A DNA stretch of 64,000 nucleotides from an uncultured archaeon (GTDB lineage Archaea; Nanobdellota; Nanobdellia; Woesearchaeales; UBA583), in NCBI GenBank assembly GCA_937138345.1, contig CAKZOW010000075.1, positions 616 through 64,615 of the forward strand, read 5' to 3'. Positions 10,207-62,898 of the stretch are shown piece by piece (the first letter of the stretch is position 1; the number at the start of each line of letters is the position of its first letter). The position numbers and the translations under genes are program-made. The notes beneath the pieces are model-generated. The model searched no databases, was not told the origin of the DNA, and worked only from the letters and a program-made list of their open reading frames with translations.

Positions 10207-10773
10207 TCATTTATAAGATTTGAGTTTAATTTGAAGAGGTTTTTGAAACACTTCAACATTAGAATAATAAGCATAAACATTTTGAAGAGTTGATTGAAAA
10301 GACCACCCACAAACTTTTTCTTTTGGTAGCGAAATTAAATCTTCTGGAAATGTTTTAGTATCAAAAATAACTGAGTCTAAAACAATATTATTTTTTTTAA
10401 CTTTTTCAACAATAGTAACACCATCATCTAAAATATATAAAGTGTCATGTAAAAATTCTAAAATAATACCATCATAAATACCTAAGAGTTTTAATGAAAA
10501 ATGAATTTTAATCTCATCATTTTCCTTAATAAATAACGTAATAATTTCTGAAGATAGAGATCTTTTTGTTAACTCTTCTTGTAAAATATAAGTAAAATAA
10601 ATACATGGTGCCAAAAAAGGAATCTTTTTACTCTTAGAAAGATTTTCTAAAAAAGTATGGGAATAAGACGCCATAACTTCTTCTTTAGAATGGAGTGAAT
10701 AAAAAACATACTCGTTATTTAATTTAGAAATAAAATCTAAAAGAATTCTTTTTAACACATCTAAATGTTCCAT
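10207..10773 (-). CDS. hypothetical protein
   Basis: 188-aa ORF. No recognisable motifs. Confidence 0.45.
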   Translation of the reverse strand: MEHLDVLKRILLDFISKLNNEYVFYSLHSKEEVMASYSHTFLENLSKSKKIPFLAPCIYFTYILQEELTKRSLSSEIITLFIKENDEIKIHFSLKLLGIYDGIILEFLHDTLYILDDGVTIVEKVKKNNIVLDSVIFDTKTFPEDLISLPKEKVCGWSFQSTLQNVYAYYSNVEVFQKPLQIKLKSYK

Positions 10774-10819
10774 AACATAATTTCATACTATGAGTTTAAA
10801 TATATTTGTTACAATAAAC

Positions 10820-10842
10820 AAACGTCAAGACTGGGATTTGAA
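10820..10842 (-). repeat. displaced duplicate of the tRNA-Ser 3' end (T-loop position 54 to discriminator, plus 3 nt)
   Basis: 23-bp exact copy (aaacgtcaagactgggatttgaa) of 10965-10987. Identity breaks exactly at the T-stem/T-loop boundary. Confidence 0.9.
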
Positions 10843-10964
10843 ACTTTTTGAGCAAAGCTCACAAAGTGCAAGAACAAATCTTGGATTTGTGTTTAGCATC
10901 AGAATGTAATTCTGGATAGAGAAAATTCTAGTCTTAGGTTTTATTGAAGCGGAGCTGAAAATAA
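10843..10964 (-). repeat. 122-bp insert X-A between tRNA-Ser and its displaced 3' fragment (candidate miniature insertion element)
   Basis: Alignable over its length with 62796-62898. A perfect 15-mer acaaagtgcaagaac lies at 10861-10875 and 62814-62828. Confidence 0.6.
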
Positions 10965-10967
10965 AAA

Positions 10968-11050
10968 CGTCAAGACTGGGATTTGAACCCAGAATTCCAT
11001 AAGGAACAAGATTTCCAGTCTTGCGCAATACCGGATTATGCGATCTTGAC
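10968..11050 (-). tRNA. tRNA-Ser (anticodon GGA)
   Basis: Cloverleaf read by hand. Acceptor GTCAAGA/TCTTGAC, anticodon arm CAAGA-CTGGAAA-TCTTG, long variable arm TTCCTTATGGAATT, T arm CTGGG-TTCAAAT-CCCAG. No encoded CCA. T-run follows. Confidence 0.9.
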
Positions 11051-11054
11051 GTAA

Positions 11055-11104
11055 TGCAATGAAGTCAATATAGCGACCAAGAATTTGAGTATCAAATTGT
11101 TGAG
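11055..11104 (+). repeat. 50-bp insert Y-T between the tRNA-Ser 5' end and its displaced 5' fragment
   Basis: gcgaccaagaatttgagtatcaaattgttgagtatg matches the dphB spacer at 12510-12545 (28/36 ungapped), and the second spacer less closely. Confidence 0.6.
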
Positions 11105-11122
11105 TATGCGATCTTGACGTAA
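11105..11122 (-). repeat. displaced duplicate of the tRNA-Ser 5' end (4 nt upstream plus tRNA positions 1-14)
   Basis: 18-bp exact copy (tatgcgatcttgacgtaa) of 11037-11054. Confidence 0.9.
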
Positions 11123-11247
11123 GTGTAATTTGTAGTAATTATCTTACTATAATAATAAAACTTAATTCACCTTTAAAAATATTGTGTATGATGAAATGTT
11201 ATCACTTGATAAGAAAAATATTTAAACAAAATATTTTTTATCTAACT

Positions 11248-11610
11248 ATGGAACCACAAATGGATTATAAAATACCTCTAAGAATTATTGAAACTAAAGA
11301 ATATCTCGACGATAAACTAGAAGTTGGAAATATTACCGATGATGAAAAAGTAATGATGGAAAGAATGGTAGCATTTTACAAATTATTACCTGAAGGAGCA
11401 GAAGATTTTGGAGAAATACCTTTCTATCCTCTAGAAGTAGATAGGGAAATGATAAGCAAGTTAAACACAAGAACAGTATATATGAAAAAAAGATGTAATG
11501 AATTTTGGTGTGAAAAAAAGAAAATAGAAGATGGAGATAGATTAACTACAAGAGTTTATTCTCATTTCAAAAGTGGTCTCGAAATCCTAGATTCAATGAT
11601 AAGATATTAA
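11248..11610 (+). CDS. hypothetical protein
   Basis: Track ORF is 11182..11610. I prefer the ATG at 11248 (MEPQMDYK). No recognisable motifs. Confidence 0.45.
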   Translation: MEPQMDYKIPLRIIETKEYLDDKLEVGNITDDEKVMMERMVAFYKLLPEGAEDFGEIPFYPLEVDREMISKLNTRTVYMKKRCNEFWCEKKKIEDGDRLTTRVYSHFKSGLEILDSMIRY

Positions 11611-11661
11611 TGAAGTAATCTTATAAATAAAGAAGCAGTTAATTAATTATATAAAATAAAA

Positions 11662-12501
11662 ATGTTACACGTAATGGGAATTGGTTATAAAAAAGAACAT
11701 CTAAGTCTAGAAATGATAAATGTTCTAAAAGAAGCAGACGAAGTATTCTTAGAGTACTATACCTCATTTTATGGTTCATCATTTGAAGAACTAGAAGAAT
11801 TAGTTGGTAAAAAAATTACTATTTGTGATAGAGAGATCATTGAAAGTAAAGTTGAAGAAGTAATTTTAAAACCAGCAAAAGAAAAATCAATTGTGTTAAT
11901 GGTAATTGGTGATCCTCTTGTAGCAACAACTCACACAGATTTATTACTTAGAGCAGAAGATTTAGAAGTAGAAGCACAAGTATACCACAATGTATCAATT
12001 GCAAATTTCATTGCAAGAACAGGACTTCAATTCTACAAATTTGGAAAAATTACTTCTATTCCATTCTTCTCAGAAAAATTCATGCCAAGAACACCTTATA
12101 TGGTATACCTAGATAATCACAAAATGGGAGCTCATTCTCTATTTTTACTTGATTTAAACCCATCAAATGACATTGCAAACAAAGGTCACGATAAATATTT
12201 ATCTGCAGGAAAATCTTTACAATTCTTACTTGATGTTCCAAAATTAATGCTAGAAAATGAAGAAATCGAAGAAAAAGACACTCTTGCATTAGATGAAGAA
12301 GATAGAGCGATAATTTGTTCAAGACTAGGACACAAAGATGAAAAAATTGTCTATGGATCGATGAAAGATTTAATTGCATTTGATTCAGAACACATGCTAA
12401 AAGAACCACTTTGCCTAATCATCCCTGGAGACCTCCACGAAATGGAGGAGAACTACTTAAGTCAATTTCAAATTTCTAAGTTTAAATCATATCAAGAGTA
12501 G
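11662..12501 (+). CDS. dphB: diphthine synthase
   Basis: MLHVMGIGY..., VFLEYYTS, IGDPLVATTHTDLLLRA, VYHNVSI. Typical archaeal Dph5/DphB methyltransferase. Confidence 0.9.
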   Translation: MLHVMGIGYKKEHLSLEMINVLKEADEVFLEYYTSFYGSSFEELEELVGKKITICDREIIESKVEEVILKPAKEKSIVLMVIGDPLVATTHTDLLLRAEDLEVEAQVYHNVSIANFIARTGLQFYKFGKITSIPFFSEKFMPRTPYMVYLDNHKMGAHSLFLLDLNPSNDIANKGHDKYLSAGKSLQFLLDVPKLMLENEEIEEKDTLALDEEDRAIICSRLGHKDEKIVYGSMKDLIAFDSEHMLKEPLCLIIPGDLHEMEENYLSQFQISKFKSYQE

Positions 12502-12699
12502 TTCTCAACCGACCAATAATTTGTATAGAAAATTATTGAGTATGGAAGAAAATTATTTATCACAGTTTCAAATCAGTAAATTCAAAAGTTACCAAGAATA
12601 AATAATTTTTTGCCGATCAAGAATCTCTGATTGTTGAATATGGAGGAGAACTACTTAAGTCAATTCCAGATTTCAAAATTTAAGTCTTACGAAGAATAG
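12502..12699 (+). repeat. two extra tandem copies of the dphB 3'-terminal 60 bp (12542-12601, 12640-12699) with 40- and 38-bp spacers
   Basis: Each copy starts with ATG and ends with a stop. They encode MEENYLSQFQISKFKSYQE and ...SYEE. They differ from the genic copy almost only at synonymous positions. Confidence 0.95.
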
Positions 12700-12703
12700 A
12701 TAA

Positions 12704-12880
12704 TTATTTTTTTATTAATTTAACAATAAAATAAACAAGTGCAGTAAAAAATCCTAAAAATACTGCAAAAATAGACCAAATAAGTTTCTTAATAATATTT
12801 TTTTCCCTAATCCATACATCTGCGATAACCCAAAGTCCCGAAATAACCCACAAAATCCAAAGTATAATGAAATAGTTCAT
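12704..12880 (-). CDS. small membrane protein (PLDc_N-like, two TM helices)
   Basis: 58-aa ORF not in the track (MNYFIILWILWVISGLWVIADVWIREKNIIKKLIWSIFAVFLGFFTALVYFIVKLIKK). Its ATG overlaps the TGA of the upstream ORF (ATGA). Confidence 0.5.
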   Translation of the reverse strand: MNYFIILWILWVISGLWVIADVWIREKNIIKKLIWSIFAVFLGFFTALVYFIVKLIKK

Positions 12881-13848: not shown

Positions 13849-15396
13849 TTATGCTGCTTTGTCTTCAAGAGATGTTTGATCATCATTAGCAGCTTCAACT
13901 TGATTTGAAATAAGTTCATATCTTTGCTGAACCATTTCCCAATTCCCAAAAAGCATTTTCTGGAATTTTTCCAAGTCTACAGTAAGGTTTTCTACAGGAG
14001 TATCATACTCTTGATATGAATCTTTTCCAATTTTTGCCATAAATGCTCTTGATTTTTTTTGTTTAAATTCTTTATCAACAACAATTCCTCCTGTTCCTTT
14101 ATGCCAATGACCCGAATGTGCAGTAATATCTCCTTCTTCATCTTTTTCAACATTAGTTTCAATATATGCTTCTAAACCTAAATGGATAACTCTATTATCA
14201 TTATTTATATTATATCCAACTACATCTCCTCTTTCATCATGAAGAAAAATCTTATCTACTCTTTGTTCTCCAATCTCATACCCCAACATAAGTCCTGCCA
14301 TTCTCTGAGCATCAATAGATTGACTAAAAATATCACTTAAATCAACTTTCCCTTCTAATTCTTTAAATTGATCTCTTGTTACATAAGTATTATCAAAGCA
14401 TTGTTGAAACATTAATTGTTGTTCTATTGGATTGTAAATCATCCCCACAAGTCCTGGAAAGTTACCTGGACAATGATTTGCTATTTGAAATGAAAATTTA
14501 TCCTCTCCTGAACCTAAATCAATTGATCCATGAATTTCCATTGCATTGTAAATTACTTCATCTGCTTTTTGTAAATTTGAACCCTCAACTAATTTATTGT
14601 ATTCTTGTCTAAATAGGTGTGTATCTGATAGAGAACCATGATTTCCACCTTCTTCAATTACCATTGTTGCTCCCCAACCATTTTCATGTGCCCTAATATT
14701 AGCATCATAGAGTACTTTTGCTTTTTCTTGAGCAATGTATTGGGCATTAGTAAAATCCATAGTAACTCCTAACCTTTTAACTTCACTTTCTGCTTTCTTA
14801 ATTTCATCTTGTTCTGATTCTAAAAGGTCTTCTACTCTTTGTCTAACATTATTTTGTTCAACATAATCTAATGCAGTAGAATATTGTTTTCTAAGATCAT
14901 CTGCTTGAATAGTATTACCCATTGCTTTTTGCATATATATTAATTCTTCCAAATCTCCACCATACTTTTTCTCAATTTGATGAACAAATGCATAATTTTG
15001 AACATCCTCAAGATCCATTTTTTGAGCCAAATAATTTAATTCAACTTGATCTGGCGTAGGTAGTTGAAATGTTTGATAAAGTCCACCTAAATGCTCTCTC
15101 CTATCGTTCGTATCTCCTAAAACTACTACATTTGTTTTTCCATTTGCTTCTTGTTGAAATTGATCTATTGCATTCTCTAAAGAAATCGTAGCAGTGTGAA
15201 TATCTGGTGCATAAAGGACTTGATTATATGCATTATCAATTTTAAATTCTTTTGGAGTGTATTCATATCCTGAATAGAATAAACTTTGCGTTAATTCAAC
15301 ATCTTTTCTCATCTGAATAACATCAGCTGTAGAAAAAACATCATCATTAGCAGCAATATCATAATTATTACCTGAGTCTTCTTGAGGTAAAGCCAT
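13849..15396 (-). CDS. metallophosphoesterase-domain protein (large, divergent)
   Basis: Calcineurin-like motif series: APDIH, VVVLGDTNDRRE, EEGGNHGS, AHSGHWHKG. Confidence 0.55.
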   Translation of the reverse strand: MALPQEDSGNNYDIAANDDVFSTADVIQMRKDVELTQSLFYSGYEYTPKEFKIDNAYNQVLYAPDIHTATISLENAIDQFQQEANGKTNVVVLGDTNDRREHLGGLYQTFQLPTPDQVELNYLAQKMDLEDVQNYAFVHQIEKKYGGDLEELIYMQKAMGNTIQADDLRKQYSTALDYVEQNNVRQRVEDLLESEQDEIKKAESEVKRLGVTMDFTNAQYIAQEKAKVLYDANIRAHENGWGATMVIEEGGNHGSLSDTHLFRQEYNKLVEGSNLQKADEVIYNAMEIHGSIDLGSGEDKFSFQIANHCPGNFPGLVGMIYNPIEQQLMFQQCFDNTYVTRDQFKELEGKVDLSDIFSQSIDAQRMAGLMLGYEIGEQRVDKIFLHDERGDVVGYNINNDNRVIHLGLEAYIETNVEKDEEGDITAHSGHWHKGTGGIVVDKEFKQKKSRAFMAKIGKDSYQEYDTPVENLTVDLEKFQKMLFGNWEMVQQRYELISNQVEAANDDQTSLEDKAA

Positions 15397-16320: not shown

Positions 16321-16467
16321 GGCTAGCTACCCCAGAAGCATCGTCCACCCCGCGATTCCCAAGCACTTTTTAACAAGCTTAGTGCTGCTGAGTTCCCCCC
16401 CTGACACGATTCACTTGAAAAAAAGCCATGGAAGACAGAGCTTCTACCTTATCTTCTAGGACTAACC
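16321..16467 (-). ncRNA. signal recognition particle RNA, short form (S-domain only)
   Basis: Minus strand reads GUG-UCAGGGG-GGAA-CUCAGCAG-CAC, the helix-8 symmetric-loop/GNRA motif of SRP RNA. The 5' GGUUAGU pairs with the 3' GCUAGCC. A TATA-like TTTATAAATA lies about 22 nt upstream and UUUU follows. GC-rich island in AT-rich DNA. Confidence 0.6.
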
Positions 16468-19742: not shown

Positions 19743-19794
19743 AAAAATCAAAGTAAAAAATAATATAATTGTATTTTTTGAAGAAAAAATAATT

Positions 19795-19921
19795 AAAAAT
19801 TAGCAAAGCTAATTTTTGTAGCTTTTTTGACAAAGTCAAGGATGTTCAAAAACTAACATAGTTAGTTTTTGTAGCTTTATTTCTAAGAAATAAAGTTCAA
19901 AAATTAGCAAAGCTAATTTTT
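19795..19921. terminator. array of five A5-stem-loop-T5 hairpins between convergent genes (likely bidirectional terminators)
   Basis: AAAAATTAGC-AAA-GCTAATTTTT occurs at 19795 and 19899. AAAAACTAAC-ATA-GTTAGTTTTT at 19848 has compensatory changes. These are interleaved with TTGAC-AAA-GTCAA and TTTATTTCT/AGAAATAAA. The last hairpin contains the ppa stop codon. Confidence 0.6.
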
Positions 19922-20440
19922 GTATTCTTTATCATAGAGCTCAAATGACTTTTGAATACTCTCAATTGCTGTTGCTCTATCTTCCCAAGCCCCAACTTCA
20001 ACTTCTTTTTTCTGTAAATTCTTATAAACTTTGAAAAACTCTTGCATCTCCGCTAAAAGGTGAGGTGCAACATCAGTAATTTCTTTCATATGAGCAAATC
20101 TTGGATCTTTTACAGGAACTGCTAAAACTTTGGCATCTCCTTCACCACCATCAATCATATCTAAAACACCAAGTGCTCTACATTTTACAATACAACCAGG
20201 AACTAATGGTTCTTCAGATAGTACTAATACATCAAGAGGATCACCATCTTCCCAAAGTGTTTGTGGAACAAATCCATAATTTGCAGAGTAATGCATAGGA
20301 GAGTATAATACTCTATCAAACATAATTAAACCTGTATCTTTATCTACTTCATACTTTACTCTAGATCCTTTAGAGATTTCAATTACAGCTGTAAATTCTT
20401 CTGAAGATTTTCTATCAACATCGTGCCATAAATTAACCAT
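19913..20440 (-). CDS. ppa: inorganic pyrophosphatase (family I)
   Basis: EDGDPLDVLVL and DGGEGDAKVLAVP motifs over a 175-aa length. Confidence 0.9.
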   Translation of the reverse strand: MVNLWHDVDRKSSEEFTAVIEISKGSRVKYEVDKDTGLIMFDRVLYSPMHYSANYGFVPQTLWEDGDPLDVLVLSEEPLVPGCIVKCRALGVLDMIDGGEGDAKVLAVPVKDPRFAHMKEITDVAPHLLAEMQEFFKVYKNLQKKEVEVGAWEDRATAIESIQKSFELYDKEYKN

Positions 20441-30182: not shown

Positions 30183-31013
30183 ATGAGCAAAAAACTACAA
30201 TATATTTCTCTAGGTAACAATGTTTCTCTAGAATCAATACTTGAACTTCAAAGAAAAATATGTAGTTTTTATAGGCAATATCCTGGAGTTAACTGTATGT
30301 ATTCTTTCTCACCAAAACCAACAATTACTCTTGGAAGTTACCACAGGGACAACAAATTACATCCGAGTTTAAATTCTCCAGTAATGAAACAAGAAGCAGG
30401 TGAACAAAGAACTCAAGAGATTGCTACTTATTTAAGAGATAAGTTAGATAATGAAATTTCAGTGTTAAATAATTCTAATCAAAGGCCCGGTGGAAGTACA
30501 TATAATGGGCCTGGACAATTAAGCTTCTTTTTTAATCTTGACCTAACACAAGAAAGTATTCATTTTGATGAACTCAAAAAAGTACTTGATGAATCTATGA
30601 TTGAAACTCTAAAATCATATAGAAATGATCTAAATTTTAACTATAAAAAACAAATTGATATCTTTACTACAATCGAGGGAACTGATTATAAAATTGCATC
30701 TCAAGGATTCAAAGTTTCAACTAATGAGTCTAAAGTTGAACATACAAGATACGGAGTCACATTTCATCTTTCTCAGGATTCCATTAAACCCTTTGATTCT
30801 TGGATTTTACCTTGTGGAGTTGAACCACATGAAGGAAAAGCAATAGCTCTTGAACAACTTATTGAAGAACCTGTAAATCAAGAACTCTTTGAAAATAAAT
30901 TTCTAGAAATATTTTCATCAAAACTAGGCTTTGAAGTTGATTCAACAAATATCATTGGAGATGTTATAAAAAAAGAGTTTGAAGAGATAGAGAGAAAATT
31001 AAAACTTAAATAG
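30183..31013 (+). CDS. lipB: octanoyl/lipoyl transferase LipB-like
   Basis: RPGGSTYNGPGQL (compare RGGxxTYHGPGQ), DYKIASQGFKV (catalytic Lys region), ILPCGV (catalytic Cys region). Confidence 0.6.
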   Translation: MSKKLQYISLGNNVSLESILELQRKICSFYRQYPGVNCMYSFSPKPTITLGSYHRDNKLHPSLNSPVMKQEAGEQRTQEIATYLRDKLDNEISVLNNSNQRPGGSTYNGPGQLSFFFNLDLTQESIHFDELKKVLDESMIETLKSYRNDLNFNYKKQIDIFTTIEGTDYKIASQGFKVSTNESKVEHTRYGVTFHLSQDSIKPFDSWILPCGVEPHEGKAIALEQLIEEPVNQELFENKFLEIFSSKLGFEVDSTNIIGDVIKKEFEEIERKLKLK

Positions 31014-35110: not shown

Positions 35111-38100
35111 TCATTCTAATCCTACTAACACCTCTTTAAAGAATTCTCTTCTTGTTTGAGATGAAATATTTACTCTTAGTTCCCAAGAATTATCTAACGT
35201 TCGACTACCAGTATATGCACTAAATACTCCTTGATTTAGCATCAAAGAATAGAGCTCAAATTCATACAATGTTCCATTAGTTGAATATACATCAATTAGG
35301 TTTTCATTTTCTTGGAAAACGCTATATCTAAGTGAGCTTCCAACATCAAAACTACTTACAGAAACATAGTCTGGAACATAAAGATGCAATGTAATATTCT
35401 TATCAAGAGTAGTTTGATCAGATAATAAATTATTTACTCTAAAAATTGTATCATATACTCCTTCACCTAATTGAGTAGATTCTATTTCTAAAGATAAATT
35501 TGTATCAAAATTAATTTCATCAATTATCTCAACTGTTGTTAGTTGAGTTTGATCACCATTACTTAATTCTCCAAAAATATCATATGATGTATTAATATCA
35601 CCTGATGCATTAAGAAGATAACCAAGAACGATACTCTCACCAAATACTAAATTCAAATTCACTGGGTTTGGACCTTCAATGAACAACGGCAATTCTGCAC
35701 TCGTATTTGAAATTAATGAATATCTCCTCTCTTCAGATGAAAAAGAATAACTAGGATCTGATCCAAAATATTCTCTAATAAAAATATCATCTGTTAAATA
35801 CTCATTTCCACCATGAATTGTAAATCTACTAAATGATGAAAATGTATTATCATTTCCAGTCATAAAATTTAATTGAGTATAACTAGAATCAAAAATTTCA
35901 AATTCTATATCTTGGTTGAAATAAGAAAATCTTTGTGTATACCACGCATTCTGAGATGTTGCAAAATTAGTTCCTGTTGCAACAGTTGATGCTACGTCCC
36001 CTGTTCTCTCTTCAATTTGAAATTGTGTACTTGCCCCAAAATTATTCAGATAAGGACCATACCCATTCCCAGAATTGTCACTTAGTGCATACCGATTAGC
36101 ACCTCCACCATTAGTATTAATTCTATTTGTTTTCAGATACATTTCATAATTTACAAAGTTAAATCCTACATCTACAAATCCTCCATTAGGATCATCATTT
36201 GTATCTTTAAGCAAGGCTCTATTCCCACTAGTCTCTGTAGCTAATCGCACTACTCCCGAATCCAAGTCACTCCACCCAACTGGGAGACTTCCGTCTAATT
36301 GACTGACAAAATTTTCAAAGTCCTCAAAATACAAAAACGTCTCAGCACCGTCACTTCTACTGATAGCCTCATCATTACCATAATAAAATTCAAAATTATA
36401 TTGTTGAGAAACTACTAAAGGAATATGTGATTCAATAAAAATTCTAGCTACTTGAGATCCGAAATCACAGTAATCAACATAATAATCAAGTTCTAATCCT
36501 GATGATGAAAATAAAAAATCATTACATTGGTTATTCCAATTAAAATTAGACCCAACATTTGAATTATTTAACTCAAGTAGATATACAAAATTCTCAGTTG
36601 TTGTGGCAGGTGCTGTAAAGGAGATATTTTGCCTATATGCATAACTCCTATTAAACCAAGGTTTATCTAAATCATCAAAATATAAACTTGAAGTAATATT
36701 TGAGCAACCTAAAACATCTTGACAAGATACATTTACGCTAACTAAAAGAGTCGTATTTTGAATAACTTGAGTAGTAGATAATGGTAGAGGATTTACTAAA
36801 TCAATATCTAATGATTTAACTACAATTGAACATTGAAGTGTAAGAGTATCTGTAGTTGAAGTATCATCTGAACTAACTTCAAAAACTGCACTAACAGTAC
36901 CCACATTAGAATCTAAGCATGAAAAGAATACTTCCGAGCTTTGATTTTCTACAAGAGAAGATCCTTGAGTAAAACTTGTTGAAAAAGAAGAACAATTTCC
37001 TGAAATACAAGTAATAAAAATATTTGAATTTGCATATCTTGAAAATAAATTTGTAGAGTTGATTTCATTACCTTCACTTTGAAAAACTTCATCAAAAGTA
37101 ATTAATGAATCCTCAAAAGTTAACTGGTTTTCTCCTAAAATTCTCAATTCAAGTCTTTGAGTATCTACTAAATTACCTAACTCCCCAAACATAACATGTC
37201 TACTATCAACAGGACCTGTTGCATTAAGAAGATATGTTACAAGAGATGATGTTCCTGAACTTACATTGATGAACTGAGGATTACTATCTAAGTAAAAAGG
37301 AGTTGAGCCAAGAATTGGAGAAACTAATTCTTTAGAACCAATAGTCATCAAACCTTCTTCTAAAGTAAACCATGCAACATCTTCATTTGCGTGAGTATCA
37401 CAATCACCAGCACCATCTTGCTCACAATACCTCACCTCAGCACTAGTGCCGGACACGAGTCTAGCGCTTGGGTATTGAGGGTCCTGTGCTCCATTATCTG
37501 AGTTTTGATACACAGCAATAACTGGATCTACAAATGTCTCAGAAAAACTAACAGGAGTCCATTCAGAATTTCCAATACTCTCTTCTCCATTTGAAAACCT
37601 AGAAAAATCTGCATTTGAAAAATCAATTGCAACATATCCATAAGTCTCACTAAAAGTACCCGAACACGTATCGCCAGTCCCCGCATGATCACATGCAATA
37701 AGTGTAGCACCACTTGTTGTAATTGTTCCATCAACCCAACCACTAGGTGCAATCTGACCTGTTGCACTGGAATAGTCTTGAGCTTGTGCAAATACACTCG
37801 GAACATTAGAAAATGTTTTTGAAAAACTAAATGCGGTATCTGATCCATCAGTTGGAACATTAGAGAGAGTTCCAACATCAATCCAACTCAATCCTGAAAT
37901 AACATCAGAATCAAAAACCATGTAATGAACTTCTTCTTGTTCAACAACTGATGAACAAGTACTAGCACCAGCATCTTCACAAAGTGCAATAGTAAATCCC
38001 GTAGTATCTAGTGAAGTGATAACTGGAATTAAAGCATTATTGTCTGAATCTGTATCACTTACAGGAGTTGCAATTACAACAGGATTTGATGAATATTCTC

Positions 38101-41100
38101 TCTCAAAAGTAATTCTCTGTGATTCAAAATTCTCTAAAGTTACACTACCCGTCTCACCAATAGATTGCAAATCATAATACAAACTAACATTAACATCTAT
38201 ACAATCAACTACATCTGCACAAGTAACATTTAATGTAATTGGGAAGGTAGTATTTTGTTCAACATCAAAAAGAACATCTGGATCTGGATTTTGCATAGTA
38301 ACATAAAGTGGTAGCTCAGTTGCTTCACAATCTAAAGCAATAGTATCTCCACTTGAATCCTGATTAGAAAATACTTGAAATACAGCGCTAAAGTTTCCTG
38401 CAACAGATGCTGAACAGATAAATTCAATTTCTGAAGTGTTTAAAGAGTCAATAGTAGAACCTTGAGCAAACGGAGTTGAAAATAAAGAACAATCTCCACT
38501 CAAACAACTAACCTGAACATTAGTATGATCTACTACACTTGCATCAAGTTGAGTAGATAAACTAACAGGATTATAATTTACAACAACCCCATTAAAATTT
38601 AAAGTATCATCTACAAAAGAAATTCTTGGCCTATCAACAATACTAACATTTACTAAATTTGAAATAACTTCTGGAAGAGATGACTTTGTTCTAACTTCTA
38701 ATTCATGGAATGAACCCAAAGGACCTGTACTATTAACTTGAAAAGAAACTACACAAGAACCATCAATTGGCACTAAACAAGAATCAGTAGTAGAACCCAG
38801 GATTCTAAATGGAGATAACGAACTATTTGTAACTTGGATGCTATTTGCATACAAACTAACATCCACATCCCCACAAGAGCCATTACATGATAAATTTACA
38901 TCAAGGTTAAAACTTTGATTTTGAAGAACTTCAGTATTTGAAATTGGAGAAATAATTGTAGCATTTAATGAACTCTCACGAATAATAACACTCACATTAT
39001 TTGAAATTGGACCATAATTTGTTAAGCCAAATAATGTAAACAATGAATTCTCTGGAGCATTTGATGAAAGACTAAATGTTCTTGACTCTGAACTCCCCGC
39101 AGATACACTAAATGCTTGAGGATTCTGAGCAGTCCATAATGGATAAGTATTATTTATAGTAGAGATACTATCTTGACTTGAACTCATAGTTTGAATTAAA
39201 CCTTCCTCTAAAGCAAACCAAGCAACATCTTCATTTGCGTGAGTATCACAATCACCAGCTCCATCTTGTTCACAATACCTCACCTCTGCACTAGTGCCGG
39301 ACACGAGTCTAGCGCTTGGGTATTGTGGATCTTGACCCCCATTATCTGAGTTTTGATACACAGCAATAACAGGATCTACAAATGTCTCAGAAAAACTAAC
39401 TGGAGTCCATTCAGAATTTCCAATACTCTCCTCTCCATTTGAAAACTTAGAAAAATCTGCATTTGTAAAATCAATTGCAACATATCCATAAGTCTCACTA
39501 AAAGTCCCAGAACACGTATCGCCAGTCCCCGCATGATCACATGCAATAAGTGTAGCACCACTTGTTGTAATTGTTCCATCAACCCAACCACTAGGTGCAA
39601 TCTGACCTGTTGCACTGGAATAGTCTTGAGCTTGTGCAAATACACTCGGAACATTAGAAAATGTTTTTGAAAAACTAAATGCGGTATCTGATCCATCAGT
39701 TGGAACATTAGAGAGAGTTCCAACATCAATCCAACTCAATCCTGAAATAACATCAGAATCAAAAACCATGTAATGAACTTCTTCTTGTTCAACAACTGAT
39801 GAACAAGTACTAGCACCAGCATCCTCACATAATGAAAATTCAACATGTGTTGTATTAAGGTTATGAATAACTGGAATTAAAGCATTATTGTCGGAATCTG
39901 TATCACTTGCAGGAGTTGCAATTACAACAGGTGTTGAATTATATGTTTTCATAAATTCAATCAATACCCTTTGATTATTCTGAGTTGTAAATGAACCTGT
40001 CTCACCAATTGATTCTACTCCATCATAAATCAAATCTATAGTAACACCTGAACAATCAAGTGCACCTACACAACTAACATTAAATACAACATCAAGTCCT
40101 TCATTTAAATAAAAATCACTTGGATTAGCAATAGGAGATACAACATCAATAGTAATTGTTGAAGGTGGAGAAATTACAAAAGTATCTTCTAAATTAATTG
40201 TTGGTAATGTAGCATGAGAACAACTCACATTATAAAAAAAACTTCCTGCACTTGGAAAAGTTGAATAAAAATCATATTGCCCAATTGATGTATTATAGTT
40301 CATTGGAGAAAAAGAGCCATAACTTCCATTTGTATTAAATTGAATTTGACAATTTGCATCATCAACTTGTGATGTATTAACAAAACTATAATTTGCAAAA
40401 AAACCAATCTCAGTATTTATACCAACTGGAAAAAAATCACTATAATCATAAATTGATAAGGAACTATTTTCTACAACAGTATAATTTGAAAAATGAGGTA
40501 CACCTACTTCTAAAATTCCTCCAGAATAAGTTAAAATACTACATTGAGTACAAATACTATTTCCGTTAACCAATACAATCGGTTCAACTTCATCGATATT
40601 GTAAAATCTCAAAATAGCAGACACATTGTAGTTGGTAAGAACCTGAGAATCTAAGCTCATAAATGAATCAGAAATTGTAACATAAGTATCTAGATCTGCA
40701 TTGTCTGCATCAATACATTGTGTAAATTCAATACTCCCAAAAGAAGTATTTTCAAGAATTAAGTTACAAACATTTGAGATATTTGACACTAATGATAAAT
40801 CTGTTGTAGTACCATCAAAAGTTTCATAAGAAACATTCAATGGACTAATTAAAGTAATCTGTCTTGATAGTAATTCTACCTGAGATGAAGTTCTATCTTC
40901 TGCTCTTAGCGTAAAATTATAATTCCCAGGAGTTATTGAAATAGTTGTGGTGACATCGCTACAATCTGAACATAAAGAAACAAATGAACCACCATTTAAT
41001 GAATATGAGAAATCAGAACTTTTCGTTGCAAAAGCATCAACTAAAATTGAATTTCCAATAGATGTCAAATTCTCAAGCGGAGATATTAATGATACAACAT

Positions 41101-44100
41101 AAGGAATTACTACAGGTTCTAATACTTCAAAACTAACATCATCATTATCATAATACTGGCCCACATTTGCACAAAAATCATTTTCTCCATCCCAATCAAC
41201 AATACATCTTACATAATGAGTACCTGTTACATCATCCACAGTAAATGTTTGAGAAACAGAGTTAGGGTTTCCATCTACAGCATTACCACTGAAGAGCTGA
41301 GTCCAGTCTGTTGAATTGTAGTAATACATATATATCTCAGTTCCAGCGTCATAAGGATCATAAAAACAAGTAGCTTCAACACTAGTTCCCCAAAACATAG
41401 TTGACATATTAATTTCTACCTCTTGTACATTTTCATCACCAGCATTACCCAAACTACTTGAGCACGAATCAAAGGTATTATCTCCCTCGCTTGTTGCAGG
41501 CCACAAAGAACAATCAAAGCCAAAAGTATCACTACATGTCCTACCAGAAGTATTTATAAGAGTTAATGGATCTACATAAAAAACACTGAAATTTATTGTT
41601 TCATTGATAATTTCTGAAGTTAAAATGTCCTGAGCAAATAGTGTTAATGAATAATTACCATTTCTAAATACTTCATCAATTAGGAATGTATCACAAGATG
41701 AACATATCTCAACGCCTGGTCCACCATTAATTGAATAAGAAATATCTGCATTTTTTGAAGTAAGTCCTGAAATACTAATAACTGGATTAGTATATTCTAT
41801 ATTCAAAGGAGAAAGAAGAGATAATGTAAATGGGATTTCAACTAATTCTAAAACCTCAATACTTGCATCATCATTATCATAATAAGAACCACCATCTCCG
41901 CATTGATCATTCTCACCATCCCAGTCAACAATACACCTGTAATAATGAGTACCAACAACTGAGTCAACCTGATGAACAACACTCACATTATGAACATTAG
42001 CATCTGGAGCATTACCACTGTAGAGCTGAGTCCAATCTGTTGTGTTATAATAATAGATATACTCCTCAGTTCCTGCACCATAAGGATCAAATTGACATGT
42101 TACCTCAACACTATCTCCACCATACACTAATGTTGAATTAATAAAAACCTCGTCAACATGCTCGTCTCCAGCACCTCCTATCGCGCTTGGGCATGAGTCA
42201 AAGGTATTATCCCCCTCACTTGTTGCAGGCCACAAAGAACAATCAAAGCCAAAAGTATCACTACAAGTTCTCTGTGTACTATCAGCTGGAGGATTAATTA
42301 TATCACTAGTTACACTAAATGATTCTATCCATATATTTTCTTCCAATGTACTATCTGCTACTGCTCTAACTTCAATATCATAAGAACCAATAGTCAAAAA
42401 TATTATTTCATCAAAACTAATACAATTAGAACAAATTTCAATAAAAGAACCGCCATTAATTGAATAAGAAATAGTAGAGCTAACATCTGTAGTTCCAGCT
42501 ACAGTGATCAATGGTGATGAATATGCTAAGTTTTGAGGTGAAGTGATATTTAAAAACGGATTTAGTACTTCAAAACTAACATCATCATTATCATAATATT
42601 GTCCTGTCTCAGCACAAAAATCATTCTCACCATCCCAATCAATAATACATCTTACGTAATGAGTACCTGAAACTAAAGAAACGGGAATTGTCGCACTCAC
42701 TTGATGAACATTACCATCAGGAGCATTCCCAGCATATAATTGAATCCAATCTGTTGTATTGTAGTAATAAATATACTCTTCAGTTCCTGCACTATATGGA
42801 TCAAACGTACAAGTAGCTTCAACAGATTCTCCAAAATAAACCAAGGAAGAATTTACAATAACACTATCAACATGCTCATCATTAGCACCCCCAGTACTTG
42901 AAGGACATGAGTCAAAAGTATTATCTCCTTCGCTTGTTGCAGGCCAATCTGAGCAATCAAAGCCAAAAGTATCGGTACATGATCTCTGAGTTCCCTGTAC
43001 TAGTGGATCAATTGCAAAAAGCCATGATCTATTTTCAAGAAAGTAATCCTGTGTTCCATAAGAAATTTGAGCTCTTCCTAATTCATATAAATATGGAGTT
43101 AGCAGAGGAGTTTGAGAATAATAAAAGAAATTTTCATGTGTAGAAATATTATCCCAAATAAGATATTTTCTTGATTTATCTTCTGATTGTTCTACCCTAT
43201 CTGCATTAGTATCTGTAATCTCAAATGTTGAAGGAATACTTTCCCTTAATTCAGTTATTTGGTTTAACTCATAATTGGTTAAAGTAAATTCATTTCTAAA
43301 AGGCCCTAAAAAAGGATCAATTGTCGCTGGCACATTTCTTATAATATCAAAAGGAATAGTATCAACAACATTCACATAACTTTTTCTATTTAATTCATAA
43401 TCTCCTACCTGTGTCGTAACATCAATGAGATATTTTCCAGTCTCAGTTACATTATAATATGCAAAATATACACCATTTTTTTTACTCTCAACAATTCCTC
43501 TATCTTGTGTTGTTATTTGTATGAAATCCCCTCCTGGAGTTTCTAACTGAAGTGATATATTTGAAGAAGAAACTAAATAACCATTAGGATCTAAAACTAC
43601 AATTACAAATTTTACAATAGATTGTACTTCATAAAGAGGCTTTTGAGTATTAATTGAAACCAACCCATATGCAAAAAATTCATCATCTCCCATTATCGTT
43701 TCTTTCTTATAAATACCTGGAGTTAAATTTTGTAAACTTGAATTTACAAAAACCTCCTTAGTATTTAAGTTAATATAAGTATTTTCTTGAGATTGATTTT
43801 CTAAATCTTGAGATTCTAAAGAAGGTAGAAAAACTTTTTCCTGAGATCTAGCATTTGTCTCCTCGTCTAAAAATATTACTGTTGAATTCTCCAAAAGAAT
43901 AATCTCTTCATCTTTTTCAATAAGAACTTTTTCTTCAGTACCATCTAAATTAATTTTTGTAATTTCTCTTTGAGTATCAATACTCTGTTCTCTAAAAGAA
44001 GAATTAAATAAAGAAGTAGTATTTACACTTCTTGGTTTTTTAATTGGTTTCTCAACTTCCTCTTTTTTCTCAATAATACTCTCAAGTTCAGAATCATCTT

Positions 44101-44806
44101 GCTCGATAGAACCTGTATTTTCTCCCTCATCATCAAAATATCCTAATTCGAAACTATAAAGGCTCTCACCAAAATCACTATAAACATTAACCTGATATTC
44201 TCCTAAAATTAATGGCTGAGATACATTAAAAGAAAAACTACATTGATATATACAGTTGAGTGAAAATGATGTTTTTTGATCTGGAACAGATTTTGGAAAA
44301 ATATCAAAAAAAAATTCTCCTTCTTGAGTTGAAGTAAGAAATCCATTGACTTTAGTTGTAATAGAATCCCTAGTTACTTCTACCCTTTTTGGAAGGGACA
44401 CACTATAAATTTCATTTTTTATCTCCTCTAAAACAAAAGAACTTCTTTGTGTAAATTTATTTCTCTCATATCTTGTAGAAACAATAATTTCATGAACTCC
44501 AAATGTGGTTCTTCCAATTCTTAATTTTTCAAAACAACTATAACCTGAACAAGAAAATTTTCTTGATGAAATTACAATATTTTCAGAGTTAATAATTTCT
44601 ACATCAAATGTAATCTCAGTATCAATTTCTTTACTAATTCCTAAATCTAAAAAGTAACTTGAATCTTCAAAAACTACTTCAACATTAGATATTGAAAATA
44701 AACCATCAGATACTCGCTGCGTTGCTGAAAACAATGAAAATAGTAATAGTAATACAACAAATATACTAATACCTATTCTCTTTGAAATCTTCATAGAAGA
44801 TTTCAA
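35111..44806 (-). CDS. giant secreted surface protein (3231 aa) with multiple repeat classes and a DUF2341 + LamG-like region
   Basis: Uninterrupted 9.7-kb ORF with an N-terminal signal peptide. Contains three Cys-rich ~240-aa units, two ~275-aa near-identical units and recurring ~45-aa Ig/CARDB-like modules. The segment KPWFNRSYAYRQNISF...FYYGNDEA (about 36330-36670) fits DUF2341 and is followed by a ConA/LamG-like segment. Confidence 0.85.
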   Translation of the reverse strand: MKSSMKISKRIGISIFVVLLLLFSLFSATQRVSDGLFSISNVEVVFEDSSYFLDLGISKEIDTEITFDVEIINSENIVISSRKFSCSGYSCFEKLRIGRTTFGVHEIIVSTRYERNKFTQRSSFVLEEIKNEIYSVSLPKRVEVTRDSITTKVNGFLTSTQEGEFFFDIFPKSVPDQKTSFSLNCIYQCSFSFNVSQPLILGEYQVNVYSDFGESLYSFELGYFDDEGENTGSIEQDDSELESIIEKKEEVEKPIKKPRSVNTTSLFNSSFREQSIDTQREITKINLDGTEEKVLIEKDEEIILLENSTVIFLDEETNARSQEKVFLPSLESQDLENQSQENTYINLNTKEVFVNSSLQNLTPGIYKKETIMGDDEFFAYGLVSINTQKPLYEVQSIVKFVIVVLDPNGYLVSSSNISLQLETPGGDFIQITTQDRGIVESKKNGVYFAYYNVTETGKYLIDVTTQVGDYELNRKSYVNVVDTIPFDIIRNVPATIDPFLGPFRNEFTLTNYELNQITELRESIPSTFEITDTNADRVEQSEDKSRKYLIWDNISTHENFFYYSQTPLLTPYLYELGRAQISYGTQDYFLENRSWLFAIDPLVQGTQRSCTDTFGFDCSDWPATSEGDNTFDSCPSSTGGANDEHVDSVIVNSSLVYFGESVEATCTFDPYSAGTEEYIYYYNTTDWIQLYAGNAPDGNVHQVSATIPVSLVSGTHYVRCIIDWDGENDFCAETGQYYDNDDVSFEVLNPFLNITSPQNLAYSSPLITVAGTTDVSSTISYSINGGSFIEICSNCISFDEIIFLTIGSYDIEVRAVADSTLEENIWIESFSVTSDIINPPADSTQRTCSDTFGFDCSLWPATSEGDNTFDSCPSAIGGAGDEHVDEVFINSTLVYGGDSVEVTCQFDPYGAGTEEYIYYYNTTDWTQLYSGNAPDANVHNVSVVHQVDSVVGTHYYRCIVDWDGENDQCGDGGSYYDNDDASIEVLELVEIPFTLSLLSPLNIEYTNPVISISGLTSKNADISYSINGGPGVEICSSCDTFLIDEVFRNGNYSLTLFAQDILTSEIINETINFSVFYVDPLTLINTSGRTCSDTFGFDCSLWPATSEGDNTFDSCSSSLGNAGDENVQEVEINMSTMFWGTSVEATCFYDPYDAGTEIYMYYYNSTDWTQLFSGNAVDGNPNSVSQTFTVDDVTGTHYVRCIVDWDGENDFCANVGQYYDNDDVSFEVLEPVVIPYVVSLISPLENLTSIGNSILVDAFATKSSDFSYSLNGGSFVSLCSDCSDVTTTISITPGNYNFTLRAEDRTSSQVELLSRQITLISPLNVSYETFDGTTTDLSLVSNISNVCNLILENTSFGSIEFTQCIDADNADLDTYVTISDSFMSLDSQVLTNYNVSAILRFYNIDEVEPIVLVNGNSICTQCSILTYSGGILEVGVPHFSNYTVVENSSLSIYDYSDFFPVGINTEIGFFANYSFVNTSQVDDANCQIQFNTNGSYGSFSPMNYNTSIGQYDFYSTFPSAGSFFYNVSCSHATLPTINLEDTFVISPPSTITIDVVSPIANPSDFYLNEGLDVVFNVSCVGALDCSGVTIDLIYDGVESIGETGSFTTQNNQRVLIEFMKTYNSTPVVIATPASDTDSDNNALIPVIHNLNTTHVEFSLCEDAGASTCSSVVEQEEVHYMVFDSDVISGLSWIDVGTLSNVPTDGSDTAFSFSKTFSNVPSVFAQAQDYSSATGQIAPSGWVDGTITTSGATLIACDHAGTGDTCSGTFSETYGYVAIDFTNADFSKFSNGEESIGNSEWTPVSFSETFVDPVIAVYQNSDNGGQDPQYPSARLVSGTSAEVRYCEQDGAGDCDTHANEDVAWFALEEGLIQTMSSSQDSISTINNTYPLWTAQNPQAFSVSAGSSESRTFSLSSNAPENSLFTLFGLTNYGPISNNVSVIIRESSLNATIISPISNTEVLQNQSFNLDVNLSCNGSCGDVDVSLYANSIQVTNSSLSPFRILGSTTDSCLVPIDGSCVVSFQVNSTGPLGSFHELEVRTKSSLPEVISNLVNVSIVDRPRISFVDDTLNFNGVVVNYNPVSLSTQLDASVVDHTNVQVSCLSGDCSLFSTPFAQGSTIDSLNTSEIEFICSASVAGNFSAVFQVFSNQDSSGDTIALDCEATELPLYVTMQNPDPDVLFDVEQNTTFPITLNVTCADVVDCIDVNVSLYYDLQSIGETGSVTLENFESQRITFEREYSSNPVVIATPVSDTDSDNNALIPVITSLDTTGFTIALCEDAGASTCSSVVEQEEVHYMVFDSDVISGLSWIDVGTLSNVPTDGSDTAFSFSKTFSNVPSVFAQAQDYSSATGQIAPSGWVDGTITTSGATLIACDHAGTGDTCSGTFSETYGYVAIDFSNADFSRFSNGEESIGNSEWTPVSFSETFVDPVIAVYQNSDNGAQDPQYPSARLVSGTSAEVRYCEQDGAGDCDTHANEDVAWFTLEEGLMTIGSKELVSPILGSTPFYLDSNPQFINVSSGTSSLVTYLLNATGPVDSRHVMFGELGNLVDTQRLELRILGENQLTFEDSLITFDEVFQSEGNEINSTNLFSRYANSNIFITCISGNCSSFSTSFTQGSSLVENQSSEVFFSCLDSNVGTVSAVFEVSSDDTSTTDTLTLQCSIVVKSLDIDLVNPLPLSTTQVIQNTTLLVSVNVSCQDVLGCSNITSSLYFDDLDKPWFNRSYAYRQNISFTAPATTTENFVYLLELNNSNVGSNFNWNNQCNDFLFSSSGLELDYYVDYCDFGSQVARIFIESHIPLVVSQQYNFEFYYGNDEAISRSDGAETFLYFEDFENFVSQLDGSLPVGWSDLDSGVVRLATETSGNRALLKDTNDDPNGGFVDVGFNFVNYEMYLKTNRINTNGGGANRYALSDNSGNGYGPYLNNFGASTQFQIEERTGDVASTVATGTNFATSQNAWYTQRFSYFNQDIEFEIFDSSYTQLNFMTGNDNTFSSFSRFTIHGGNEYLTDDIFIREYFGSDPSYSFSSEERRYSLISNTSAELPLFIEGPNPVNLNLVFGESIVLGYLLNASGDINTSYDIFGELSNGDQTQLTTVEIIDEINFDTNLSLEIESTQLGEGVYDTIFRVNNLLSDQTTLDKNITLHLYVPDYVSVSSFDVGSSLRYSVFQENENLIDVYSTNGTLYEFELYSLMLNQGVFSAYTGSRTLDNSWELRVNISSQTRREFFKEVLVGLE
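37345..38170 (-). repeat. intragenic repeat copy R2 (~825 bp)
   Basis: Matches 39193-40018 at a fixed 1848-bp offset. 37663-37975 is identical to 39511-39823 (313 bp). Confidence 0.9.
39193..40018 (-). repeat. intragenic repeat copy R1 (~825 bp)
   Basis: See R2. The protein segments SIGETGS...VAWF(A/T)LEEGL are nearly identical. Confidence 0.9.
40850..42995 (-). repeat. three tandem ~720-bp units encoding a Cys-rich module plus an Ig-like domain
   Basis: Units start near 42995, 42277 and 41548. Conserved block C(T/S)DTFGFDCSxWPATSEGDNTFDSC ... GTHYVRCI(I/V)DWDGENDFC ... YYDNDDVSFEVL. Confidence 0.85.
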
Positions 44807-62775: not shown

Positions 62776-62795
62776 CCCTCCGACCGGGATTTGAA
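62776..62795 (-). repeat. displaced duplicate of the tRNA-Glu 3' end (T-loop position 54 to discriminator)
   Basis: 20-bp exact copy (ccctccgaccgggatttgaa) of 62899-62918. Identity breaks at the same T-loop position as at tRNA-Ser. Confidence 0.9.
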
Positions 62796-62898
62796 ACTTT
62801 GAGAGTGAAACGAACAAAGTGCAAGAACGAGCTTGGCGAGTGTCTGGCATAATGTTGAAAATTACACATAGAAAAATATCGTTGCTAAGCTATAAATA
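62796..62898 (-). repeat. 103-bp insert X-B between tRNA-Glu and its displaced 3' fragment (homologue of X-A)
   Basis: Begins actttgagag... (X-A begins actttttgag...). Shares acaaagtgcaagaac, gtgt.t.gcat..aatgt and atagaRaaaat blocks with 10843-10964. Confidence 0.6.

Follow-up and report, generated by a model that had tools for sequence, protein, structure and literature searches.

The subject of this analysis is the 3' end of dphB, the diphthine synthase gene, in a 64,000-nucleotide stretch of archaeal DNA (the window; AT-rich, 30% G+C), where the last 19 codons and the stop codon of the gene occur three times in tandem. Both spacers between the copies were found to hold the same imperfect hairpin, which recurs next to duplicated gene or tRNA ends elsewhere in the window and in other lineages. 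We consider it fairly probable that the array was built by serial insertions of tiny non-coding hairpin cassettes that rebuild the end of the gene they enter. The tandem dphB tails are real, insertion is precise, and the units are all devoid of coding capacity. Hairpin cassettes have a hot spot in dphB, and the cassette family is more general than this single locus. Sequences compared with the window are designated below by L numbers.

Tandem dphB tails and the hairpins between them

Homologs of the dphB product carry PF00590, are named diphthine synthase and come from Woesearchaeota and Nanoarchaeota, and the protein was aligned to solved diphthine synthases across residues 1 to 275. The three 60-nt tail copies repeat with periods of 100 and 98 nt (coordinates in Table 1). 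Between copies 1 and 2, 19 nucleotides differ in 14 codons, and all of these changes are synonymous, including three switches between serine codon families and the exchange of TAG for TAA. Copies 1 and 3 share their first 26 nt and differ at 9 nt in 9 codons, eight of them synonymous and one replacing Q with E; over the array, 22 of the 23 changed codons are synonymous. Only 14% of the single substitutions possible in copy 1 are synonymous, and the peptide was kept in 0 of 100,000 random variants of copy 1 carrying 19 substitutions; the synonymous pattern of the copies is therefore not due to chance. The original prediction, made from the letters of the window, had described these copies; a recount returned the same coordinates, periods and substitution counts, and the claim that the pattern exceeds neutral expectation was borne out.

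Because the 279-nt array showed 0 differences among three independent ENA assemblies, one of which is merely 98% identical over the 2.6-kb locus, it is no assembly artefact. Variant arrays were also present in a TARA scaffold, in Logan contigs and in an NCBI metagenome-assembled genome (MAG).

In both spacers, the ATG of the next copy is directly preceded by a conserved imperfect hairpin, CGACCAAGAAT-(variable apex)-ATTGTTGAGT. Its base is conserved (CGAC-CAAGAAT...ATTGTTG-AGT); a G.G mismatch interrupts it, and its outer AC/GT pairing includes a bulged A. The apex is free to vary in sequence, yet its pairing is kept, and hairpin length ranges from 26 to 41 nt. Compensatory changes were found in 6 of the 10 stem pairs (24 hairpin copies, 20 of them distinct), and 93.7% of hairpin cells were paired, compared with 82.5% in shuffles and 38 to 60% when the partner was slid. 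Folded as DNA, the hairpins gave energies of -4 to -7.7 kcal/mol and z scores of -2.6 to -5.9 (-5.1 kcal/mol and z -5.7 for hairpin 1), with the G.G mismatch and the bulged A visible in the folds. A full-sensitivity scan of the window returned three hairpin copies only, the two in the array and one beside a tRNA-Ser gene. Rfam gave no match to the hairpin, neither over the whole window nor when 10700-12800 and six other loci were searched with a permissive threshold; the only hits were tRNAs and a signal recognition particle (SRP) RNA. The junction between hairpin and displaced copy is fixed, in most cases as GAGT/ATG. The original prediction had held that the spacers diverged freely, a view that the conserved hairpin in both of them, at 11074-11105 and in other lineages contradicts; the hairpin, and with it the extension to tRNAs and other genes, had been overlooked.

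Comparison with relatives gave the array a polarity. The tail of L186, which has no array (ATGGAAGAACGTTATTTAAAAACATTTCATAGCTAA), differs by three synonymous codons from the distal copy of L128, compared with eight codons from the gene-attached copy of the same lineage. In the window and in L190, the distal copy runs on into the native downstream flank. The flank behind copy 3, ATAATTATTTTTTTATTAATTT, is present in array-free L190 as well; in its second half, copy 3 is similar to the native tail of L188, a sister lineage, and the 12-nt flank in cassette 2 resembles the native downstream flank. The closeness of the L186 tail to the L128 distal copy, together with the native flank behind the distal copy, thus identifies the distal copy as the resident tail. 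The insertion comprises the gene-attached copy, its short flank and the hairpin. One of the two explanations put forward in the original prediction, that already-diverged orthologous tails were stacked by repeated integration or recombination, is supported and given specific form by this outcome: cassette units, an imported proximal copy and a native distal copy.

Strains whose DphB is 99% identical and whose nucleotide identity genome-wide is ~95% differ in their number of dphB tails, with three in the window, three in L001/L002, two in L124 and one, without an array, in L190. Copy 1 of L001/L002 is a different synonymous version whose identity to that of the window is 85%, where the background is 95%, and in these strains hairpin 1 has had its apex replaced outright (AAACGAGACTCGTTT). 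Copy 2 is the same in L001 and the window, hairpin 2 is one nucleotide off, and its 12-nt flank differs by one more; copy 3 of L001/L002 has an in-frame TAA at codon 10. The second tail of L124 is a chimera of copies 2 and 3 with TAA at codon 2, copy 2 of L191 is interrupted, and the single tail of L190 is a chimera of copies 1 and 3. The chimeras in L124 and L190 and the differences in copy number indicate that units are gained, exchanged and lost by in-register recombination.

The tail peptide is unchanged across the whole 90% cluster, including a sub-lineage that is ~93% identical. We infer that the copies diverged under purifying selection, each having once served as a working tail in some related genome, and that their differences are only synonymous for this reason. 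Between copies 1 and 2, 13 of the 18 degenerate codons differ, compared with 7.0 expected at full synonymous saturation under the genome's codon usage (P = 0.0026), a figure subject to ascertainment, as the window was chosen for this pattern. In L128, 7 of 10 degenerate codons differ between the copies (P = 0.07); window and L128 combined gave P = 4e-4. In whole-gene comparisons, the fraction of same-residue codons that differ was at most 0.49, even at 68% protein identity. The collapsed arrays of L124 and L190 show that recombination between copies removes arrays; arrays with similar copies would be lost quickly, and arrays would be seen mainly when adjacent copies are too dissimilar to recombine.

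Recurrence at tRNA genes and other gene ends

The dphB 3' region was surveyed in 22 Woesearchaeota-type lineages, comprising 18 GTDB species representatives and four others. The hairpin lies just 3' of the dphB stop codon in five of them (the window's species, L126, L128/L178, L129/L180-185 and L130). Four of the five hairpin lineages have a second tail copy, and its first codon is in each case that for Met in the conserved HEMEE; the L126 contig ends eight bases into its second copy. Relatives at 80 to 93% identity (L003, L004, L186, L188 and L189) have a single tail followed by the same downstream genes, and L187 also has a single tail, though its contig stops 27 nt past the stop codon.

The third hairpin of the window belongs to a 68-bp insertion at the 5' end of tRNA-Ser(GGA) that is missing from four relatives with the same tRNA (L001, L190, L188 and L189). 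In L190, the hairpin adjoins a displaced 3' fragment of tRNA-Ser. Occupied and empty sites were thus found in close relatives at both dphB and tRNA-Ser.

A motif scan of public metagenomes returned eight loci, and in seven of them the hairpin lies between two copies of neighbouring sequence, the second of which begins at the ATG that ends the motif. A 33-nt gene tail is present three to four times with a period of 65 nt in L172/L176, and an oxidoreductase tail is stacked in three copies in L174/L179. The hairpin was also found at a 27-nt gene tail (L177), at the 5' start of an RNase Z-like gene (L173), once more at dphB (L178), and at the tail of an AAA ATPase gene and other gene ends. A significantly similar upstream copy of the post-hairpin sequence was present in 18 of 20 testable instances, mostly aligned exactly from the ATG; the exceptions were L175 and a weak-scoring variant motif in L179.

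Table 1. Positions of the dphB array and of the tRNA-Ser locus in the window
Feature	Position	Strand	Description
dphB (diphthine synthase, 279 aa)	11662..12501	+	ORF; last 19 codons and stop are copy 1
Cassette 1	12442..12541	+	Copy 1 (12442-12501, in use), 8-nt flank TTCTCAAC and hairpin 1
Hairpin 1	12510-12541	+	CGACCAATAATTTGTATAGAAAATTATTGAGT; covariance-model hit, 52.7 bits
Cassette 2	12542..12639	+	Copy 2 (12542-12601), 12-nt flank ATAATTTTTTGC and hairpin 2
Hairpin 2	12614-12639	+	CGATCAAGAATCTCTGATTGTTGAAT; covariance-model hit, 44.3 bits
Copy 3	12640..12699	+	Displaced distal tail; runs straight into native downstream flank
tRNA-Ser(GGA)	10967-11051	-	Target of a hairpin cassette at its 5' end
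68-bp cassette, dphB hairpin family	11038..11105	+	Replacement tRNA-Ser 5' end and diverged upstream flank (11038-11073), then hairpin
tRNA-Ser hairpin	11074-11105	+	CGACCAAGAATTTGAGTATCAAATTGTTGAGT; covariance-model hit, 58.5 bits
Displaced original tRNA-Ser 5' end	11106..11122	+	ATGCGATCTTGACGTAA; begins right behind hairpin; z 8.4

A second insert family of ~100-120 nt was also observed, with a core of ..CCAAG..GTTCTTGCACTTTGT.. followed by a variable terminal hairpin (window 10821-10966 and 62776-62898; L188:1655-1800; L190:1-215). Inserts of this family separate two tRNA genes from displaced copies of their own 3' ends, 25 nt long for tRNA-Ser(GGA) and 20 nt for tRNA-Glu(CTC), a design that is that of the dphB cassettes. 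In L190, a hairpin cassette of the first family is stacked before a second-family insert, and the L001/L002 contigs stop exactly at this tRNA-Ser(GGA). The second family had 0 matches in the viral contig scan. At L191:1387-1456, just before the contig end, dphB copy 2 is cut after ..TTATCACAGT by second-family sequence (GCCAGACACTTCGC..CCAGACACTCGCGAGCTCGTTCTTG); this break may be a real insertion at a TTTCAAATC pseudo-target inside copy 2, or it may be an assembly join.

A different arrangement was seen at L139:10740-14108, where DphB is 63% identical and ~130 nt of the dphB 3' end occur three times, 1.5-1.7 kb apart. Each interval holds a minus-strand AAA_14/DUF4143 ATPase gene, and the displaced dphB ends are frameshifted. 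The two ATPases are near-identical in their C-terminal third, and each has its own hairpin cassette and displaced ATPase tail. The locus was considered as a cargo-carrying version of the cassette and rejected as such: the hairpin belongs to the ATPase gene tail, which makes the dphB repeat a separate, larger duplication.

Three tandem units of 51-53 nt at 19776-19939, each with the palindrome AAAAATTAGCAAAGCTAATTTTT, matched the hairpin model weakly (15-18 bits). They sit between a plus-strand 473-aa ORF, whose L003 counterpart has a radical SAM domain, and a pyrophosphatase gene. Elsewhere in the window, the next gene, on the minus strand, has its stop codon just past copy 3 at 12704, and ribosomal proteins P0 and L1 are encoded at 76-1549. 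A 515-aa gene beside a PIN_9 gene (13849-15396) is swapped for an unrelated 221-aa gene in L001:2811-3476; this strain-variable slot is 1.2 kb from the array, and L001 is ~95% identical elsewhere. An SRP RNA on the minus strand at 16344-16441 (Rfam RF00169, 48.8 bits) fits the bacterial small SRP model despite the archaeal genome. A tRNA-SeC called by ARAGORN at 30805-30899 on the minus strand lies inside a lipoate-protein-ligase-like coding sequence (30183-31013), has no Rfam call and is probably a false positive. A repeat at 37532-39719, with a 1848-nt offset and nested 54- and 279-nt sub-repeats, falls within a 3227-aa ORF (35111-44794).

Proposed cassette insertion and its alternatives

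A cassette consists of a copy of the target gene end (here 19 codons and the stop), 0-27 nt of 3' flank and the 26-41-nt imperfect hairpin. In the mechanism that we propose, it would enter dphB at the ATG of the conserved HE-M-EE codon, and its own tail would take over as the working gene end. The former tail, shifted downstream to a position right behind the hairpin and out of service, would then decay or recombine away. The cassettes would be non-autonomous, their movement depending on a site-specific enzyme that acts in trans and reads the folded hairpin. Folded single-stranded DNA (ssDNA) is the probable substrate, since a unit of 65-100 nt falls below the size needed for an ordinary double-stranded circle; integron attC sites, the attP of CTX phage and HUH/Y1 enzymes also operate through folded ssDNA.

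Several points weigh against this account. Searches with Pfam among ~40 window ORFs and 10 neighbours of the other hairpin copies returned no recombinase, transposase, HUH protein or reverse transcriptase, and housekeeping genes only; which enzyme mobilises the cassettes, and whether the intermediate is single- or double-stranded, is therefore guesswork. Free or circular cassettes were not seen. The left junction is masked by conserved sequence upstream of the ATG, the canonical hairpin of L175 has no detectable flanking duplication, and at the tRNA-Ser 3' fragment in L190 the junction reads GAGA/ACA instead of GAGT/ATG. Spread between strains may have occurred by ordinary homologous recombination of a larger fragment. 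The ascertainment behind the dissimilarity figure of the window also counts here, as L128 alone stays at P = 0.07.

The arrays could instead be scars of full-size integrative elements, that is, viruses or plasmids with a tyrosine integrase, which entered the dphB 3' end with a replacement tail and whose interior was later deleted, leaving two att-proximal arms. A rebuilt end, an insert and a displaced end are the architecture that integrases produce. Tandem re-use of sites is known, and the protein genes that archaeal elements enter in their 3'-distal part include one for diphthamide biosynthesis (PMC6563490); stacking through successive integrations has been described for tycheposons (bioRxiv 10.1101/2020.12.28.424599). 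Displaced 3' fragments are also present at the tRNA-Ser and tRNA-Glu of the window. We nevertheless judge this origin unlikely. A coding interior was found in none of more than 20 copies at at least 10 loci; apart from the gene-end copy, the inserts measure 26-60 nt. The displaced copy always has the same hairpin next to it, whereas independent deletions would not yield equal boundaries. The hairpin motif had 0 matches in 2.9 million viral contigs, and a viral contig scan with copy 2 also gave 0; a 15-mer scan of viral contigs gave 119 chance hits with no extended similarity. No match to the 321-nt array region with both hairpins was found in plasmid or phage collections, and separated hairpin halves, as a full-size element with terminal inverted repeats would show, were found nowhere in 846 kb of related DNA.

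Alternatively, the hairpin could be a palindrome akin to MITEs (miniature inverted-repeat transposable elements) or repetitive extragenic palindromic (REP) sequences, with insertion or template switching duplicating whatever lies between the insertion point and the nearest upstream ATG, and allele exchange with other strains later diverging the copies. Near-identical flanking copies fit such an origin: units 1 and 2 of L172 and the flanking copies of L176 are identical, and those of L177 show 2 differences in 27 nt. The left copy usually extends right to the hairpin, and L176 holds a half-motif with an 8-nt duplication that begins at ATG. We judge this origin, too, to be improbable. The recent tRNA-Ser insertion, which relatives at 95-99% identity lack, has a left flank that is already strongly diverged; the proximal copy of L128 is an outlier and no sister of the distal copy; and copies 1 and 2 of the window differ at 19 of 60 nt without a replacement, which drift after duplication cannot produce. 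Duplications of 15-72 nt match no known transposase stagger.

Other candidates were examined and rejected. A MITE or insertion sequence (IS) with a fixed target duplication is incompatible with duplicated stretches of 8 to ~72 nt and with the divergence at the recent tRNA-Ser insertion. A bulge-helix-bulge intron was dismissed on inspection, as the junctions are direct repeats that are unable to pair, and a CRISPR array because units differ in their hairpin apex and the "spacers" share homology.

The original prediction had also proposed that copies 2 and 3 are functional, either as independently translated 19-aa micro-ORFs or as alternative tails selected at the peptide level. All window copies have an unbroken frame beginning with ATG, and of the 23 changed codons 22 are synonymous; the displaced copies of L128 and L129, moreover, differ from each other synonymously only. 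This synonymous pattern is, however, accounted for by former service as a working tail, and nonsense codons, which the original prediction had itself named as counting against function, were found in displaced copies of strains with 99% identical DphB (TAA in copy 3 of L001/L002 and in the second copy of L124). L190 has no array, copy 2 of L191 is interrupted, and at other genes the peptides encoded by displaced copies differ or are truncated (L130, L172, L179 and L139). Between 11000 and 13000, no terminator-like sites were found and promoter-like sites were no more frequent than in shuffles, a weak indication, as it covers bacterial signals only. We therefore regard function of the extra copies as very improbable.

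That an assembler or strain collapse stacked allelic tails is hardly conceivable: the source is a metagenome-assembled genome from a population with ~5% strain divergence, but the identical array came from three independent assemblies made with different assemblers, related arrays are present in TARA, Logan and NCBI records, and a conserved structured hairpin separates the copies, a design that returns in other lineages and genes.

Serial insertion of hairpin cassettes is thus the reading that we retain for the array. A wider hypothesis is put forward more tentatively, as a possibility that we do not rate as high as even: Woesearchaeota (DPANN) would harbour hairpin-ended non-coding mini-cassettes of 65-150 nt, each with a working end copy of its target gene or tRNA, which travel between genomes as folded ssDNA through a hairpin-reading recombinase or nuclease and persist only if synonymously recoded enough to escape homologous recombination. 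If this is correct, the survival rule of the mini-cassettes would be a natural instance of selection for synonymous dissimilarity. If the retained reading of the array is right, the spare-gene-end strategy of integrative elements would reach down to gene-free units, and an enzyme reading a small DNA hairpin would be hinted at in DPANN. The arrays would be a natural test of how much synonymous divergence is required to stabilise direct repeats. The cassettes would also explain why contigs of DPANN MAGs break recurrently and carry "duplicated gene tails", and they could serve as a marker of strain-level recombination. For annotation, short ATG-initiated ORFs that follow gene ends in these genomes would have to be treated as displaced pseudo-tails, not as small proteins.

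Comparison with known systems

Integron gene cassettes with attC sites have been reported in Archaea, including Nanoarchaeota (PMC9668308). Like attC sites, the units described here terminate in an imperfect hairpin whose base is conserved, whose apex is free and which contains extrahelical or mismatched bases; like integron cassettes, they have their junction at the hairpin foot, are added beside a fixed site and can be lost. The 3' foot of the cassette hairpin, GTTGAGT, fits the R' consensus GTTRRRY. The 5' arm, in contrast, is CGACCAAG, so the complementary R'' box (RYYYAAC) is missing, and the cassette junction falls after GAGT, 6 nt beyond the G/TT at which attC crossover occurs. Integron attC sites are also longer, at 57-141 nt compared with 26-41 nt. 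Neither an IntI gene nor an attI platform was found in the window ORFs scanned, and, unlike in integrons, the cargo is the target gene's own end and the targets are scattered gene ends, not one platform.

REP sequences and the hairpin ends of IS200/IS605-type elements are short imperfect palindromes whose enzymes recognise folded single strands and make their cut at a set distance from the hairpin. The cassette hairpin resembles them, as they are described, in its imperfect palindrome, conserved 5' tetranucleotide and stem mismatch and in its position just past stop codons. In the window it is present in three copies in 64 kb, where REP sequences are high-copy, and it has a gene-end duplication attached; no RAYT or TnpA was seen there. 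Diversity-generating retroelements, which are common in DPANN, pair a 3' variable repeat with a nearby template repeat. A near-copy of the gene 3' end close by and a hairpin beside the repeat are shared features, but this candidate was rejected: the differences span all four bases and are not limited to adenines, they are synonymous, and no reverse transcriptase was present in the window ORFs scanned.

The C-terminal displacement of rhs and cdiA genes (PMC3150448) offers another parallel, as an incoming piece replaces the working tail and older tails are orphaned downstream. There, distinct toxins and immunity genes are kept for diversity, whereas at dphB a single housekeeping peptide is maintained, no extra genes are present, and the unit is defined by a hairpin.

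The closest likeness is to integrase-borne elements, for which rebuilding of the gene end, displacement of the old end and re-use of the site are known, with targets that include archaeal 3'-distal protein genes and the 5' end of tRNA-Ser (PMC6563490). In both systems, the incoming copy rebuilds the gene and the old end comes to lie beyond the insert; the insert is flanked by direct repeats of the target end, of which the proximal one completes the gene, and empty and occupied sites are found in close strains. Newer arrivals next to the gene shove older ones outward, and tRNA 3' and 5' ends and a diphthamide-pathway gene serve as targets. Unlike these elements, the cassettes are without any gene (a 26-41-nt hairpin and 0-27 nt of flank), with dphB inserts of 38-40 nt in the window compared with elements that carry an integrase, and no integrase lies nearby. 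The duplicated segment reaches 72 nt and is a diverged allele, as opposed to a short identical att core. The original prediction had stated that no described system has the architecture seen at dphB. This stands for the non-coding cassette of 65-100 nt, as a limited literature search found no description of hairpin mini-cassettes, but not for the stacking of displaced gene ends, which is known to arise by serial site-specific integration. With no integrase found, no R''/R' pair or attC length, no adenine-specific changes and no fixed target duplication, the cassettes fall outside these families as defined, and we place them as a variant of site-specific integrative elements.

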